Assembly (NCBI GenBank): GCA_951406725.2
Contig: OX597814.1
Span: 13,826,001-13,890,000 of the forward strand
Direction of reading: 5' to 3'
Source of the DNA: Octopus vulgaris
Lineage: Eukaryota
Length of the DNA: 64,000 nucleotides
Every line of letters starts with the position of its first letter. The first letter of the stretch is position 1. Below are positions 4,636 through 21,100 of this stretch, one piece after another. The translations under genes and the position numbers were made by a program. The notes under the pieces were generated by a model. The model saw nothing but the letters and a program-made list of their open reading frames with translations, searched no databases and was not told the DNA's origin.

Positions 4636-6557
4636 CTATCCGTTTTCTTTAGGGGACCAAAAACGTAACAGAAATTTAGTCACATGTGGGCATGATCCGA
4701 AAAGTTCTGTCCTTGTATTTAGACATGTGGTAGGGTCTAAGCTGCTTTTCCAGATAAGCCATCTCTCCATGTCGCATAAACCGCACCTTCCGCTGCCGTT
4801 AGTATAGGGCTTACATCTGGCCAAAATCTTCCATTGTATGTTATAATCGACACCTTTATCTCTTAAAGACCAAATATGATTGGATAATTGTGTCGCTTTT
4901 CTTTTGTTCCAGTGCCTAAAGCTCAAAGTGTGGTTATTGAACCTGGCCTTGAAATTACCCTCTGTCAGGCCCACGTATTTCTTCGTCGAAACGGTGTCTT
5001 TAGTGGTTATAGAGTTTACGGTAGCTTCATATATGATGGTCTTGGACATGCAAGCTCCATTTAGCGGGCACAATTCTTTATTCCTGCATGAACAGCTGTT
5101 TTCTTCTTGTGTTTTTTGTATGTTATGATTGATTATGTTTTTAAAATTGGTAGTTGAACTAAAACTAATTTTTAAATTGTGTCTATTGAAGAGTTTCCTA
5201 TAAGCATGGTTAACTGGAAAATGTCTATCTATCAGTGCTAGGAAATATTTACCTATATTGAAGGCCACCTCGGGTGAGTAAGGGGGCGTAAACCAGATGA
5301 CCTTCCTATTTCTATTATTCCTTTTCCTTATTGTTGGGCTGGTGATAGGTGTATATTTTATTTTTTCGCTAAAACCACTATCTTTTAAAGCTTTATTATA
5401 AACTGGGGCAACGCTATTGAAGATGTCCTCATTAGATGAGAGGCTAGAAATCCTCTTACTAATATTTTTAACTAAATTTTTGAATACTATAGGGGGATGG
5501 CATGAACCTACATTAATATAACTTAGTCTATCATTGGGCTTCCTATAAGGCTTATAAATATTATTATTAAGATCTAAGGAAACGTCTAAGAAATTGACAA
5601 CCGTCAGGTTAGTGTCTATAGTTATACTAAGTCCGAAGTGTTTCATTAACTGGATAATATCCTTCCTAAAACGATCTTGTGTTAGTCCATTTGTATTAGC
5701 TGTTAAGGCGAGGGCATCATCTTTGTAGATGGCGAAATGTACGTTAGGGAATGTCTTACCGAAGGTATCTAGGAGAAAGAGTCCAATTAGATCACAGATG
5801 CCTGCCCCATCATATGAACCCATGCTCACATCGAAAGCGCCCTCCGTGTCGGTGTTTTTTACCCACTTTGCATTCTCACTGAAAAGTAATGTCTTTCTAG
5901 CATGGAAGATTATATCCTTATCATTGGTACTAATTTCTATGAAGTCACTAGCGAAGATTAGGGCTTTATCTAGCAGTTCTTTAGAGATAGAGGCATAAAA
6001 ATCAACAATATCGAATTGTGTAAACCTCGCTTTTTTCTTATTCTTAATAGCTTTAAACCAGTCTACGACTTCTATACTATTGGACCATTGCACTAGCCTA
6101 GTATCGGTCTTAATTTTCGTATTTATTTTATCTAAAATTTCTTTGCTAATAATCCCTAGTTCTGACTTGGCTGGGTTGATAAGCCTACATTTAGGGTTGG
6201 AAAGGAAGTTTTCTTTGTGGTCTTTAATAGTAATAAAGGCCTCTTTTTGGGGAGGGTTTCTATTTTTTTATCTAATTTAAGTTTAGCGGCGATGACGCTA
6301 GCTTCTTTATTAATTTCGTTATATGTCTGTGACCTAGCCTTAGTATAATTATTAATGATGCTGTTGTGTAAGAGTTGTGTGTATTTGCTGTTATCTACCA
6401 GGTATAAGTTCTTGGTTTTATCCGAAAAAAGTGCTTTTTTCTTGGAGCTTTTTATATGATCAATATCTTTTTTCAATTTATGTTGGAAATTGTTAAAAGA
6501 CTTACGAAACTTTATTTTGCTCATGATCTTCAGCAGGTCCGCTTCGAAATCTTCCAA
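4636..6557 (-). pseudogene. PLE reverse transcriptase + GIY-YIG endonuclease, one frameshift near 6250
   Basis: N-terminal FSDKTKNLY (DKT in place of DKG). After the frameshift: EAFITIKDHKENF..CRLINPAKSELG, then FDIVDFY, FDVSMGSYDGA, YKDD, NFLDVSLDL, YKPYRKP, CSCRNKELCPLNGAC, IIYEATV..YVGLT..FKARFNNH, CGLC and SCPH. The frame is open from about 6250 to the stop at 4636. Confidence 0.9.
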
Positions 6558-6616
6558 GCCTTTAATCCTAGGAGGGAATTTTTTGGATTTTATCCGATAG
6601 AAAATGTACTAGGCTA

Positions 6617-8073
6617 GTGCAATGGTCCAATAGTATAGAAGTCGTAGACTGGTTTAAAGCTATTAAGAATAAGAAAAAAGCGAGGTTTACACAATTCGAT
6701 ATTGTTGATTTTTATGCCTCTATCTCTAAAGAACTGCTAGATAAAGCCCTAATCTTCGCTAGTGACTTCATAGAAATTAGTACCAATGATAAGGATATAA
6801 TCTTCCATGCTAGAAAGACATTACTTTTCAGTGAGAATGCAAAGTGGGTAAAAAACACCGACACGGAGGGCGCTTTCGATGTGAGCATGGGTTCATATGA
6901 TGGGGCAGGCATCTGTGATCTAATTGGACTCTTTCTCCTAGATACCTTCGGTAAGACATTCCCTAACGTACATTTCGCCATCTACAAAGATGATGCCCTC
7001 GCCTTAACAGCTAATACAAATGGACCAACACAAGATCGTTTTAGGAAGGATATTATCCAGTTAATGAAACACTTCGGACTTAGTATAACTATAGACACTA
7101 ACCTGACGGTTGTCAATTTCTTAGACGTTTCCTTAGATCTTAATAATAATATTTATAAGCCTTATAGGAAGCCCAATGATAGACTAAGTTATATTAATGT
7201 AGGTTCATGCCATCCCCCTATAGTATTCAAAAATTTAGTTAAAAATATTAGTAAGAGGATTTCTAGCCTCTCATCTAATGAGGACATCTTCAATAGCGTT
7301 GCCCCAGTTTATAATAAAGCTTTAAAAGATAGTGGTTTTAGCGAAAAAATAAAATACACACCTATCACCAGCCCAACAATAAGGAAAAGGAATAATAGAA
7401 ATAGGAAGGTCATCTGGTTTACGCCCCCTTACTCACCCGAGGTGGCCTTCAATATAGGTAAATATTTCTAGCACTGATAGATAGACATTTTCCAGTTAAC
7501 CATGCTTATAGGAAACTCTTCAATAGACACAATTTAAAAATTAGTTTTAGTTCAACTACCAATTTTAAAAATATAATCAATCATAACATACAAAAAACAC
7601 AAGAAGAAAACAGCTGTTCATGCAGGAATAAAGAATTGTGCCCGCTAAATGGAGCTTGCATGTCCAAGACCATCATATATGAAGCTACCGTAAACTCTAT
7701 AACCACTAAAGACACCGTTTCGACGAAGAAATACGTGGGCCTGACAGAGGGTAATTTCAAGGCCAGGTTCAATAACCACACTTTGAGCTTTAGGCACTGG
7801 AACAAAAGAAAAGCGACACAATTATCCAATCATATTTGGTCTTTAAGAGATAAAGGTGTCGATTATAACATACAATGGAAGATTTTGGCCAGATGTAAGC
7901 CCTATACTAACGGCAGCGGAAGGTGCGGTTTATGCGACATGGAGAGATGGCTTATCTGGAAAAGCAGCTTAGACCCTACCACATGTCTAAATACAAGGAC
8001 AGAACTTTTCGGATCATGCCCACATGTGACTAAATTTCTGTTACGTTTTTGGTCCCCTAAAGAAAACGGATAG
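6617..8073 (+). pseudogene. PLE RT + GIY-YIG, broken by a 1-bp deletion near 7468
   Basis: ORFs 6617-7471 and 7636-8073 match the minus-strand 485-aa ORF. AAATATTTCTAG here versus AAATATTTCCTAG in the left arm. Confidence 0.9.
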
Positions 8074-16037: not shown

Positions 16038-18053
16038 CTCAAGGTTTTTCTCAAAATTTCTATACATACAATTTGTGTGTGTGCGTTTGTGTGTCTAAGT
16101 ATATATATTTAATTATAAAATATGTAGAAAGCAACGTTCCTCATATATAGTAGTCGTTTTGTCCTAAATCTAGGTATTTTCACGTTCGAAGAAATTTGTT
16201 CATTACGAACATGCATAAATCCCTACTTTCTACCCAGTGAATAAAGAAATCCCTGAGTTCATGCAATTGTAAGTCCAATTCATTAAAGACATCTATAAGG
16301 CACATTACATCAAGTAATATACTTTTCATAAGTCTTTAAAGTTTATAGTCTTTCAAGGGTTAAATTATTTTCAAAGTTTGGAATATTTACACCATGGAAT
16401 CATTTTCCAAATTATTTAAGCTTATGTACTGTTTATTGATGTCTTTACCTTATGAAAGATTTTGGAAAATCTTTAATATTTTAAAAAATTGTATTTGTAT
16501 AAGGGATGCAAATAATATCTTAACATTAGAAATAGTGTTCAGTTTAGAAGAATTACAGGCGGAAAGTTGACGTAAACTTCATGCTATAGCATTGATATCC
16601 AGTCAATTAATGAAGTGTAATCGAAGAGACTTTTCTAATTTATTTGGTATTTATATGGCAATTTATATGGTAACCGATTGACGGAGATGTTGACATATGA
16701 CATCCTATGTGTGTAGATATCTTAGATGTGTTTTATAAGAGAATGGAGCGTAAACAATTGCTGTAAATTTATATGAAAGCGGCAGTAATGTTACCCATTG
16801 CAATATTTCCACATGAAACGTATTTTGTGTTTGACTTTTATATTGTTTTTGGAATGATTATGCTAGGCATATTATTGGAAATCAGTAACTGGAGCATAAA
16901 ATACTAAAACATATTTCTTTAGTAAACATTACATATATATTTCAGCAAAATTAGTATTCTTCTAACTATTCTTGCATAAAATTTTCAACTGATATTCAAT
17001 ATCACTGTCGTAAACAAATGCATTTTCTCAATGAATGTTTCAGCAAGGAAGGACCATGTTAAAATCACAGAACCTGAGAACACTATATCGATTACAGTTC
17101 AAGTGGAATAGAAATACTCCTGTGTAAAGGGCGCATAGCAAATACATGCACTTTTTAATATCCCATTTAATTTACCCTTAAACAGAAAACTAATTATCCG
17201 CTTGCCGGATATAATTAAATTTCTGTTAATTAACTTGTTGCTGTACATTAGAATGATTTCTATGCTAATTACCATAAATATCCTTTGAGTATATAGCAAG
17301 TGTTCTAAATAGATATTTATGGTACAATAATTAAAAAATTATTGTTTTAAAAATATATTTACTACATCATTTTCTATTTATTACACAATTCTTGTTTGTG
17401 GGAAAGGCATCTTATTAATAAATATATGTTGGCTCTTACATGTAAGTTAAGATTGTGTAATGAATCATTCAATATTTTTCGGCTATCAACAGAATTACCG
17501 AGGGCTATTTCTTTATTGTATCGAAACGATTATTAATTTTCTCGGGAAAATGTTATATTCATGGAAAGATTCGTATTAATTTATTCATTACACACGGGCA
17601 AGTTACCTTGTAGCATAGCTCAACGATTTAAATATTAGCGTGTGCTGTAACACCCATGTCTGAATATTAAAATCCGATTTTTTTCCACAAAAAAAATCAA
17701 TTATCGATATAAAATTTTTGACGGAATGATTGCTGTATCCAGATATTTGTTTCTTATCATGTAAATAAACGTAAGCCAGGAATATTTAGCTGTAGCAATC
17801 TGTATCTGTATTTTCATGTCACATTTTGTGGTGGGGGGAAATATTACGTTAAGCGTTAATTGATTTTTCCCGCAGTCAGCTACGTAATAAGGTGAATTTC
17901 CTCAGAATATTATTCAAGATACATCGAGTGTTTGATTATTGGAACATTTATCTCTTCTGCGTACTACGCGATCCATGCACATGTATAAAGTTACTATCAT
18001 CTAATGAGATAAATTTATTCTATTACATTATTATTATTATTATTATTATTATT

Positions 18054-20599
18054 CAGTAGTTTTATTTTTATTTTTATAGCGTGCTTTCACTTCACTACCG
18101 AGCACAGCTCTGTGTGCCTTGGGTTTGTGCTGTGATTTGTTGTGATGCTCTGATGGTTATTGTATGGAAAGTGTTCTGCGTAGGATGTGTGCAGTGCCCA
18201 GTAGTGCAATTTTCTGTATGTTATATGTGTTTGTAAGTCCTGGTGTTTTTGTTATGTATTTGTCTGAATATTTTTTTATCATGCCTAATGCACCTACTAT
18301 GATAGGAATTGTTTCTGTTTTCAGATTCCACATTCTAGTTACCTCTATTTCCAGGTCTTTGTATTTTGAGAGTTTCTCCATTTCTTTTAGAGACACGTTG
18401 TCATCTGCCGGTACTGATACATCAATTAGAAAGCATTTTTTTCTTCATGGTCTCTGACAACTATATCTGGTCTGTTGGCCTTAATTTCTCTATCTGTGTG
18501 TATCGGCATATCCCAGAGTATGGTTGCTTTCTCGTTTTCTGTGACCTTTTCTGGTGTGTGCCTATACCATCTTTTTTCTGTTGTTATTCCATAATGTTGG
18601 CATAGCTTCCAATGTATGTAAGTTCCAACTCTGTCATGTCTGTGAATATATTCCTTCTTAGCCAGGACTGGGCAGCTAGAGATAATATGATTTATTGTTT
18701 CTTGTCCATCTCCACATATTCTGCAGTTACTTGTAATATTTCTTTTCATTACATGTTTTTGGTAATTTCTGGTGGGGAGGCTTTGGTCTTGTGCTGCAAT
18801 TAAAAATCCCTCTGTTTCTGCTTTGAGTCCTGAGCTTCTCAACCATTGCTGGGATTTTTCTTTGTCTATTTCTTTTGCGTTTAGTTTAGTCCAGTATTTA
18901 CCATGAAGGGGCTTTTCTTGCCATCGTTTTATCATGGTTCGTTGCTGTTCTATTTTTAGTTTGGATTTCATTTTTTTTATAGCTTTTGTTGTTTCTTCAT
19001 CTTCTTCTTCTTCTTCTTCATGTTTATTAGGTGGTATGATTTCTTGTTTGTATTTGTCAGCTTCCTTAAATACTGAGAACAGTTTTTTGTTTTGCTCGTG
19101 TTTTGCCGCTATCTGGATCAGTTTTCCTTCCTTCTGAAGTAGATATTTTTGCAGTCCTATGGTGGTTATTTTATAGTAGTTTTCCAGCTGTATAAGGCCT
19201 CTACCACCTTCTATACGTTGTATATATAGTCTTTCTATGTCAGATTTTGGGTGATGCATCCTAGATCCTGTCATTATTTTTCTTGTTTTCCTGTCTATTT
19301 TGGTCAGTTCATTTCGTGTCCAGTTAAGGATATTGTAGCTGTAACTTATAACTGGGACAGCTAAAGTGTTGATACCTATTATCTTGTTTTTAGCATTGAG
19401 CTCTGTGTTTAGTATTGATCTAACTCGTCTATAATATTCTTTTTTTATTTTCTCTTTCATTTGTGTGTGTTGTGTCTTATCTAGTTCATGGATTCCTAAG
19501 TATTTGTAAGTTTGGCTTTGGTCTAATTCTTTTATTTCATTTGCTTCATCTAGTGTGATGTTGTTACTCTTAACTAGTTTTCCTCTTTTCATGGTTACTT
19601 TGGCGCATTTTTCTAATCCAAATTTCATATCTATTTCTTTGGTAAATCCATGAACTGTCTTTAATAGTGTTTCCAGCTGTTTGTCATTTGCAGCGTATAG
19701 TTTTAGGTCATCCATATATAAAAGGTGGCTGATCGTTTGGCCGTAACATTTATATCCGCATCCAGTTCTATTTAGCATATCAGATAGAGGTGACAGTGCT
19801 AAGCAGAAAAGGAGTGGAGAGAGCGTATCTCCCTGGAATATTCCTCTTCTAATGGGGATGTCTTTTGTTTTCATGAGTCCCTCTTTTGTTTGGAGGTGTA
19901 GGACTGTTTGCCATTTATTCATAGAGTGCTCTATGAATTTTATGATTGTTGGTGCTACTTTGTTAATGGCTAGTGTTTCGAGGATCCATGTGTGGGGGAT
20001 GCTATCAAACGCCTTTTTGTAGTCAATCCAGGCCATACTGAGGCCTTTCTTCTTTCTGTGGCTGTCTTCAGTTATGGCTTTATTAATCATTAGTTGATCT
20101 TTACAGCCATATGAGCCTTTGCGGCATCCTTTCTGCTCTTCTGGGAACAGTTTGTTTTCGTCCAGGTGCTTGTTCAGCCTTTGTGATATCACTGCAGTAA
20201 ATGCCTTGAACATAGTAGGGAGGCAGGTTATTGGTCTGTAGTTTTCTGGTTTTTCTGTTTCATTTGATTTGGGAATTAAGATGGTTTTCCCCTTCGTGAG
20301 CCATTCAGGCATTGTCTCTGGCTCTGCTAGTACGTTGTTAAAGTTTTCAGCCAGCTTTTTGTGCATTCCTGTTAGATATTTCAACCAGAAGTTGGGGATC
20401 TTGTCATGCCCAGGTGCCTTCCAGTTGCTTAGTCTTTGCAGTGCCTGGGTGACCTCTTCAGTTGTTATGGGGGTCCAAGTTTGTTCAGATGCCGAGTTTG
20501 TTATTTTGATACTCCTTTTTTTTGGTGGTTCGTTCGCCGACCATATTTCTCCCCAGAATTCTTCCAATTCTTCTGCCGTTGGTGCTGCAGTGACTTCTA
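18054..20599 (-). mobile_element. R4/Dong-clade non-LTR retrotransposon (RT + restriction-like endonuclease), 5'-truncated, in (TTA)n
   Basis: The 3' end abuts (TTA)n at 18027-18053 and (TTA)n resumes at about 21040. Dong elements are known to target TAA repeats. Confidence 0.92.
18157..20567 (-). pseudogene. R4/Dong ORF: RT, CCHC zinc knuckle, RLE endonuclease; single frameshift in an A-run near 18440
   Basis: 713-aa ORF with KAPGHD, NYRPITCL, EQKG, WIDYKKAFDS, GIFQGDTLSPLLF, YMDD, YKYLG, CRICGDGQETINHIISSC and NRPDIVV. Continues in the next frame as CFLIDVSVP..EKLSKYKDL..ILRRTLSIQ*. Confidence 0.92.
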
Positions 20600-21036
20600 T
20601 TCTTCCAATTCTTCTGCCGTTGGTGCTGCAGTGACTTCTATTCTTCCAATTCTTCTGCCGTTGGTGCTGCAGTGACTTCTATTCTTCCAATTCTTCTGCC
20701 GTTGGTGCTGCAGTGACTTCTATGTTCTTCCAATTCTTCTGCCGTTGGTGCTGCAGTGACTTCTATTGGTGCTGCAGTGACTTCTATTGGTGCTGCAGTG
20801 ACTTCTATTGGTGCTGCAGTGACTTCTATTGGTGCTGCAGTGACTTCTATTGGTGCTGCAGTGACTTCTATTGGTGCTGCAGTGACTTCTATTGGTGCTG
20901 CAGTGACTTCTATTGGTGCTGCAGTGACTTCTATTGGTGCTGCAGTGACTTCTATTGGTGCTGCAGTGACTTCTATTGGTGCTGCAGTGACTTCTATTGG
21001 TGCTGCAGTGACTTCTATTGGTGCTGCAGTGACTTC

Positions 21037-21038
<2 letters not shown>
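20559..21038. repeat. Nested tandem array made of LINE 5'-junction sequence (5x41 bp + 13x21 bp)
   Basis: The 41-mer TTCTTCCAATTCTTCTGCCGTTGGTGCTGCAGTGACTTCTA starts at 20559, 20600, 20641, 20682 and 20725 (TG inserted before the last). The 21-mer TTGGTGCTGCAGTGACTTCTA occurs 13 times over 20766-21038. Confidence 0.95.

Positions 21039-21100
<62 letters not shown>

Follow-up and report, generated by a model that had tools for sequence, protein, structure and literature searches.

How does a retrotransposon come to end in a long series of copies of its own first few dozen bases? The question is raised by a 64,000-nucleotide (nt) stretch of the Octopus vulgaris genome (the window; contig OX597814.1 of assembly GCA_951406725.2, positions 13,826,001 to 13,890,000), whose minus strand carries a 5'-truncated long interspersed nuclear element (LINE) of the Dong/R4 type, inserted in a (TAA)n microsatellite. 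At the truncation point the start of the element is repeated in 17 extra units of 21 to 43 nt, arranged head to tail and all co-terminal with the truncated 5' end. This array is unique in the genome, and sibling copies of the element carry other arrays at their own 5' ends. The 17 extra units were likely written during one insertion by the reverse transcriptase (RT) of the element. As to how, we think with moderate confidence that the RT ran off the 5' end of its RNA and jumped repeatedly onto a short RNA fragment that it had retained.

The array and the element that carries it

Splitting the sequence at the common unit end gives 18 unit boundaries, the element's own end lying at 20599 (Table 1). 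Counts and coordinates are those of a first-pass annotation of the window, which had described five 41-mers, the element's own start among them, followed by thirteen 21-mers. It had also taken the repeated sequence for coding sequence of the LINE itself, and the peptide it named does sit in the minus-strand RT frame. Overlaps at the junctions can be scored because sibling copies show the element sequence beyond the cut: thirteen of the 17 have a 2-nt overlap, three have a 3-nt overlap and one has a 1-nt untemplated insertion. This bears out restarts at microhomologies (16 of 17) with an extra TG at one junction; the fourth 41-mer unit is in fact 43 nt long, with 2 more nt at 20723-20724 where one untemplated base replaces the 3-nt overlap. 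As had been stated, the last 21-mer is followed by the (TTA)n target.

Table 1. Positions of the array, its LINE and the target in the window, and loci with related 5' junction runs
Feature	Position	Strand	Basis or scope
5'-truncated Dong/R4-like LINE body, with RT, CCHC knuckle and restriction-like endonuclease (RLE)-type region	18052..20601	-	translation, domain search, sibling comparison
3' (TAA)n tail / downstream half of target microsatellite	18027..18051	-	sequence; sibling 3' ends
Element's own first 41 nt, template of all units	20559..20599	-	splitting at unit end; comparison with sibling loci
Four extra 41-mer units (20600-20640, 20641-20681, 20682-20722, 20723-20765)	20600..20765	-	splitting at unit end
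Thirteen identical 21-mer units, 5' start same as 41-mers, 2-nt overlaps	20766..21038	-	splitting at unit end; sibling comparison
(TAA)20, upstream half of target microsatellite, joined via short A/T overlap	21039..21100	-	sequence, sibling comparison; (TTA)20 on + strand
(GAA)n / (GGA)n 5' junction runs	L043, L047, L055, L158, L163, L170, L176, L192, L028		full-length copies only

A 22-mer across a 21-mer junction is found 13 times in the genome (2.8 Gb), each time inside this array (reversed control, 0). The repeat is absent from all 30 sibling loci fetched, which read on upstream without any repeat. Siblings without the repeat and a genome-unique junction rule out both a repeat that was already part of the family consensus and a duplicated locus, and they support, overall, the first-pass view that the array was made de novo at insertion. 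A search of the same genome with the body adjoining the array gave 1,376 candidates, of which 40 were scored, all 100% identical. The array is known from the one assembly. When the body beside the array was aligned to four sequence runs, three contig sets contained the family, at 95-100% identity, but not the go-back joint of the locus; the single raw-read run aligned 0 reads, and the alignments are no test either way. Runs matching the right flank held at most 0.42 of its words, and those holding it were contig sets.

The insertion must be very young: across 2,543 nt, its body matches the copy in L142 at 100.000% identity (L-numbers label fetched genomic loci carrying family copies), and it differs from L143 by one gap. 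The copy starts about 1,425 nt into an element of about 4.0 kb. It retains a recognizable RT domain (RVT_1, E 5e-33), and its frame shifts at a 7-nt T run (18436-18442) ahead of the endonuclease, the place where the frame of L109 ends as well. A natural copy in L120 has a single open reading frame of 1,226 amino acids with RVT_1 (E 3e-32), YMDD at residue 708 and, in its C-terminal part, CX2CX8HX4C at 1038, RHD at 1066, PD at 1123, D at 1139 and K..KY at 1155. A C-terminal CCHC knuckle with a restriction-like endonuclease is on the motif list of the Dong/R4 clade, whose members, in contrast to R2, have no N-terminal zinc finger; the L120 protein has no cysteine before residue 539. Its residues 457-1207 match R2 proteins, which are also its best solved relatives (E 9e-36). 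(TAA)n stands at both ends of the locus copy and of most siblings, and sibling 3' ends run straight into it in 26 of 30 cases, with two more after a short interruption and two unscored. The single reading frame, the motif set, the R2-like relatives and the insertion in (TAA)n, which is listed for Dong elements, fit the Dong/R4 class (PMC3812793; here and below, statements about cited papers apply to the parts of them that were available). Dong-R4 families are reported to have been recently active in O. vulgaris (PMC13282606). In L001, L002, L017, L023 and L116 the copy has inserted into the (TAA)n tail of another family copy or of an older related LINE.

Arrays across the family

Full-length copies were sampled through an exact 37-mer at the element's 5' end, which has 294 matches; the first 100 listed represent 99 insertions, as two of the hits collapse into one (L171). 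Extra 5'-end units are present in 60 of these 99 (261 units) by a first parser and in 59 (256 units) by a second, with 1 to 40 units per array and 14, 19, 25 and 40 in the longest. Truncated copies were found via internal or 3' sequence, and their 82 rows yield 71 junctions once the studied locus and 10 rows with internal deletions or diverged starts are left out. In nine of the 71, one of them doubtful (L088), the extra units repeat the start of that very copy; the units differ from copy to copy and begin at the copy's truncation point, the pattern that the first-pass annotation had predicted for other copies. Two of 12 automatic array flags (L220, L121) were rejected as point mutations, and copies below 97% identity were left unscored, among them L125 with a visible single duplication. 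Arrays are thus far more frequent in full-length than in truncated copies (Fisher p 1e-10), in samples that consist of the first listed places on the largest contigs and in which exact-match patterns favour young copies. Genome-wide, the commonest junction type has 621 matches (control, 0).

Arrays at the 5' end are therefore a habit of the family and not a rare accident. The degree of reiteration at the locus, which had been thought unusual, does not stand out: some 60% of sampled full-length copies have arrays, and three of 99 have more extra units (19, 25 and 40), so that 17 rounds are high but within the family range. Unit counts do not clearly exceed a geometric law save for the 40-unit array (at least 13 units: 4 seen, 1.4 expected). 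Unit length is mostly 22-23 nt in full-length copies and about 12-43 nt overall, with one unit of 315 nt. Truncated copies with arrays include L113, L142, L005, L147 and L135. L113 has one long unit and then three 21-mers, the same long-then-short order as the studied locus, while L135 is cut at the same base as the studied copy, yet has 34-mers where the latter has 41-mers and 21-mers.

Several individual copies deserve mention. The studied copy (20599-20601), L135 and L019 are cut within 3 nt of one A/T-rich, target-like spot at about 1424-1426 of the element, and two of the three have arrays; the spot is a possible hot spot of RNA cleavage or pairing. The 315-nt unit is the only extra unit of L171 (G000:C2:195326548-195326899) and has several differences from the body, perhaps reflecting a jump to a second RNA molecule. 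At the 5' junction of L038, a 7-nt inverted copy of element 5' sequence lies beside the target, in a snap-back-like arrangement. In L246 (G000:C2:145578500-145579000), homopolymer slips are numerous in an array of over 20 units and run on into the body; this is probably a low-quality consensus. Large internal deletions join distant parts of the element in L135, L099, L111, L063, L064 and L038, which suggests jumps of the RT within its own RNA.

How the arrays may be written

Two properties of the arrays carry the argument about their origin. The first is a memory for unit ends. Neighbouring junctions agree in the 3' extent of the unit 169 times out of 195, where 5,000 shuffles gave 84 on average and 100 at most; likewise, 23 of 37 arrays have uniform units, compared with an average of 7 and a highest value of 17 after shuffling. 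Unit ends are fixed inside one array and differ between arrays, which calls for a template with two fixed ends that differ from event to event. The second is the order of the junction variants. Runs tests on six long arrays (P 0.21-0.88) show G, GG and rarer variants to alternate with no clustering, and 15 arrays compared have at most three junction variants in common order. Unit count does not rise with divergence (rho -0.24, p 0.14, for 41 of the 99 copies, those that have a neighbour and sufficient body), and the 25-unit array sits on a copy without substitution relative to its nearest sibling. Gradual growth after insertion is therefore disfavoured, as the first-pass annotation had held, and fresh variants in random order together with the absence of an age effect indicate that the arrays were written at insertion.

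At the jumps we find untemplated bases or pairing of 1-3 nt, as in the end-to-end template jumping of R2-type enzymes. The R2 RT jumps after untemplated addition, and needs it (PMC8857657); it jumps to further RNA molecules once its cDNA (the DNA copy of the RNA) is full-length (PMC11371274). As far as the sequences go, overlaps of 1-4 nt and array-specific fixed ends fit many rounds with terminal re-pairing. Fixed unit ends also seem a better fit to a short clipped RNA fragment re-used end to end than to sliding on an intact long template. The first-pass proposal of repeated re-copying is thus supported in its core, whereas its picture of an intact template fits less well.

Together, these data suggest the following model. 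Target-primed reverse transcription would be followed by cutting of the hybrid RNA, by host RNase H, close behind the enzyme, and a 5'-terminal piece with two fixed ends would remain, held by the RT. The RT would then add 0-3 untemplated bases, pair 1-3 bases with the 3' end of the piece and copy it again. At the studied locus the piece would have measured about 43 nt for four rounds and, after trimming, about 22 nt for 13 rounds; a piece of about 43 nt would account for both types of 41-mer junction, by terminal overlap or by an added G paired with the terminal U. Joining of the cDNA end to the upstream (TAA)n would end the cycling and would often clip the last unit. The G or GG that varies before each unit of full-length copies could represent a fresh copy of the cap plus untemplated C in every round, and the prevailing fragment size of 22-23 nt could be the footprint of the enzyme. 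First-strand copying, RNase H cutting, the cap and the acting enzyme are all inferred. The arrays are probably a by-product of slow 5' joining, and we claim no function for them. Nine of 99 full-length junctions but none of 71 truncated ones (p 0.011) have runs of at least three (GAA)n or (GGA)n units between target and element; such runs may arise when the last three bases are stuttered, and they may give rise to compound microsatellites.

A number of observations weigh against this model. Copying on the first or on the second strand predicts the same common start and the same long-to-short order, and the choice between them therefore rests on the asymmetry of clipped outer units and on a few single arrays. 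Nor is the order strict. Units do tend to shorten towards the target, as in eight of 14 heterogeneous full-length arrays, but two of the 14 lengthen and four are mixed, although substitutions, through their effect on the parser, account for some of the mixed or longer calls. Going outward, L180 and L142 become longer by 2-3 nt, and L063 is mixed. The R2 RT adds mostly A (PMC8857657), whereas the extra bases of full-length copies would be C and T on the cDNA; the cap, which is meant to explain them, would have to be reconciled with the 5' end of Bombyx mori Dong, made by a ribozyme like that of hepatitis delta virus (HDV) (PMC3774820). Such an end is also found in Ascaris R4 and is not known to be universal. 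An Rfam scan of L100 (1000-1700) gave no HDV-like ribozyme and one unrelated weak match (21 bits, cut-off 95), although a divergent ribozyme could escape such a scan. Homopolymer slips occur in the assembly (L246), so part of the G/GG variation may be sequencing error. A target-like A/T-rich cut spot common to three copies suits target-primed starts of the second strand, and RNase H cutting and retention of the fragment are steps that we infer.

The alternative to be taken most seriously, though we consider it unlikely, is repeated priming of the second strand. Here the 3' end of the upstream (TAA)n would be extended on the 3' end of the cDNA by the RT or a host polymerase such as Pol theta, stall, be released and prime again at the cDNA end; a block, for example RNA on the cDNA, would recede to 21 and then 41 nt until the polymerase runs through. 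The geometry and unit order would be as observed, the added bases would be purines on the growing strand, and unit starts are often target-like, with three copies cut at one such site. Second-strand priming by R2 is imprecise, with jumps (PMC13000458, PMC2718515), and host repair takes part (PMC13486585). The clipped units are harder to accommodate. The outermost unit lacks at least 5 bases at its start in 16 of 59 arrays, compared with 2 of 197 inner units (p 1e-9), and 14 of these 16 have no overlap to the target. Being made first, the outermost unit would in those 14 arrays have to start inside the cDNA unpaired, and the skipped bases would have to be regained later. L247 would require seven such unpaired rounds, because the first 5 bases, present in its proximal units, are missing from seven distal ones. 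At the 5' junction of L050, two units have the same 2-nt gap and the body has none, which is awkward for an intact DNA template. Moreover, the R2 RT displaces RNA during second-strand synthesis (PMC13000458), so a stable block would need another polymerase. A comparison of body and outer starts (25 later, 0 earlier) is biased because the bodies were chosen by a 5' pattern; loci found independently of it supply 19 near-full-length rows, in which 18 bodies start at 1-4 and one (L146) at 5.

We hold it improbable that, each time it arrives at the 5' end, the RT on the first strand returns to an internal microhomology by sliding back along a long RNA that is still intact. Overlaps of 2-3 nt at all junctions of the locus but one would suit it, and internal deletions in several copies suggest that the RT can re-enter its own RNA. 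However, such re-entry should favour like points wherever the sequence is the same, yet each array has points of its own, and overlap is lacking altogether at junctions of L135 and L116. A covalent circle as template is disfavoured by the variation from junction to junction.

Long perfect tandem arrays are mutable, and 13 identical 21-mers hold no internal record of their history. A single duplication at insertion followed by slippage or unequal exchange, or inheritance from array-bearing source copies, nevertheless appears very improbable to us in view of the missing rise with divergence, the 25-unit array on an unsubstituted copy, the random order of variants, which is not common to arrays, and the genome-unique junction of the locus; some later change in unit number is compatible with one assembly. 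That the arrays are sequencing or assembly artefacts we scarcely believe: they are known from assembly sequence and one (L246) lies in error-rich sequence, but about 70 independent loci with arrays at family 5' junctions were examined, each array at the copy's own end and with varied junction bases.

Elsewhere in the window, two near-identical frames with RT and GIY-YIG-like parts form a divergently oriented inverted pair (4636-6267, minus strand; 6572-8073, plus strand), putatively of a Penelope-like element.

Relation to known systems and significance

Re-copying of a retained RNA fragment resembles the end-to-end jumping of R2, whose RT is related and RLE-type, jumps after base addition and gives serial products in vitro by moving onto more RNAs (PMC11371274, PMC8857657). 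For R2, however, the jumps lead either, in vitro, to separate templates supplied in excess or, in cells, a single time to another RNA, whereas the octopus family would copy one short 5' piece in up to 40 rounds, fixed in the genome and in most sampled full-length insertions. Tandem duplications at R2 5' junctions are likewise short direct repeats, and one sequence in the legend of Figure 5 of that study contains three head-to-tail copies of about 20 nt (PMC3774820). Most of them are single duplications of the 28S target carried in the RNA and explained by failed annealing, and they make up about 5-10% of junctions in two species for which such a minority share is given (PMC3774820); the octopus units are the element's own 5' end, or any truncation point, repeated over many rounds.

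The first-pass annotation had called the copying telomerase-like. As an analogy this holds, since telomerase and DRT2 also copy a short RNA stretch many times and re-pair a few terminal bases (PMC12039810). It does not extend to the template, which is fixed in both (PMC12039810), whereas the octopus arrays have no fixed structured template region or boundaries, form units at any truncation point, change length within an array and have no evident function. L1 monomers are long promoter units of about 200 nt. The 5' monomer arrays of mouse L1 are also tandem copies of an element's 5' end, but they are inherited through RNA, while the octopus units, of about 23 nt, are apparently new at each insertion; RT template switching and staggered second-strand priming have been put forward as speculative routes to monomer regain (bioRxiv 10.1101/2022.08.06.500894). 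The Dong elements of the R4 clade (B. mori Dong, DongAg, DongBg) share with the octopus family the single reading frame, the RT, the C-terminal RLE-type motifs and the insertion in (TAA)n (PMC3812793), and B. mori Dong has an HDV-like ribozyme at its 5' end (PMC3774820), for which the Rfam scan of the octopus 5' end gave no match.

In the literature searched we found no report of 5' arrays for Dong elements, nor of family-wide multi-round 5' arrays in general, in a search that missed key older papers and many subscription papers, and curators of repeats may know the pattern. The junction types listed in the available parts of two PRINT studies are anneal, join, snap-back and extra-template, without repeated 5' ends (PMC11371274, PMC11331408), and the accessible portions of two further papers do not describe such arrays (PMC2718515, PMC4370867). 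Published cases are the serial jumping of R2 in vitro and, at a single R2 junction, a repeat present three times; what we rate as new is the family-wide occurrence of many-round arrays.

How the 5' end of a LINE is finished, by the RT or by host repair, is still argued (PMC13486585, PMC13000458). The octopus family records each round of the stalled 5' step at many loci, 621 of its matches belonging to one junction type, which makes it possible to tally the order, the size of the fragments and the bases added; for an assay there is a natural intact reading frame (L120). The arrays offer a one-step origin of minisatellites, as opposed to slippage after duplication (PMC6947457), and they bear on the unsettled issue of how L1 regains its monomer arrays. 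Tentatively, and with more doubt than confidence, we suggest that the octopus enzyme is an RT with real repeat-addition processivity in the germ line, which in the majority of full-length insertions cycles up to 40 times on a retained, capped 5' scrap of RNA, down to units of 3 nt. If that is true, retrotransposon copying and telomerase-style synthesis would be linked by an intermediate that is still alive, new mini- and microsatellites would have a direct source, and there would be a working model of the regrowth of tandem 5' promoter units in LINEs.
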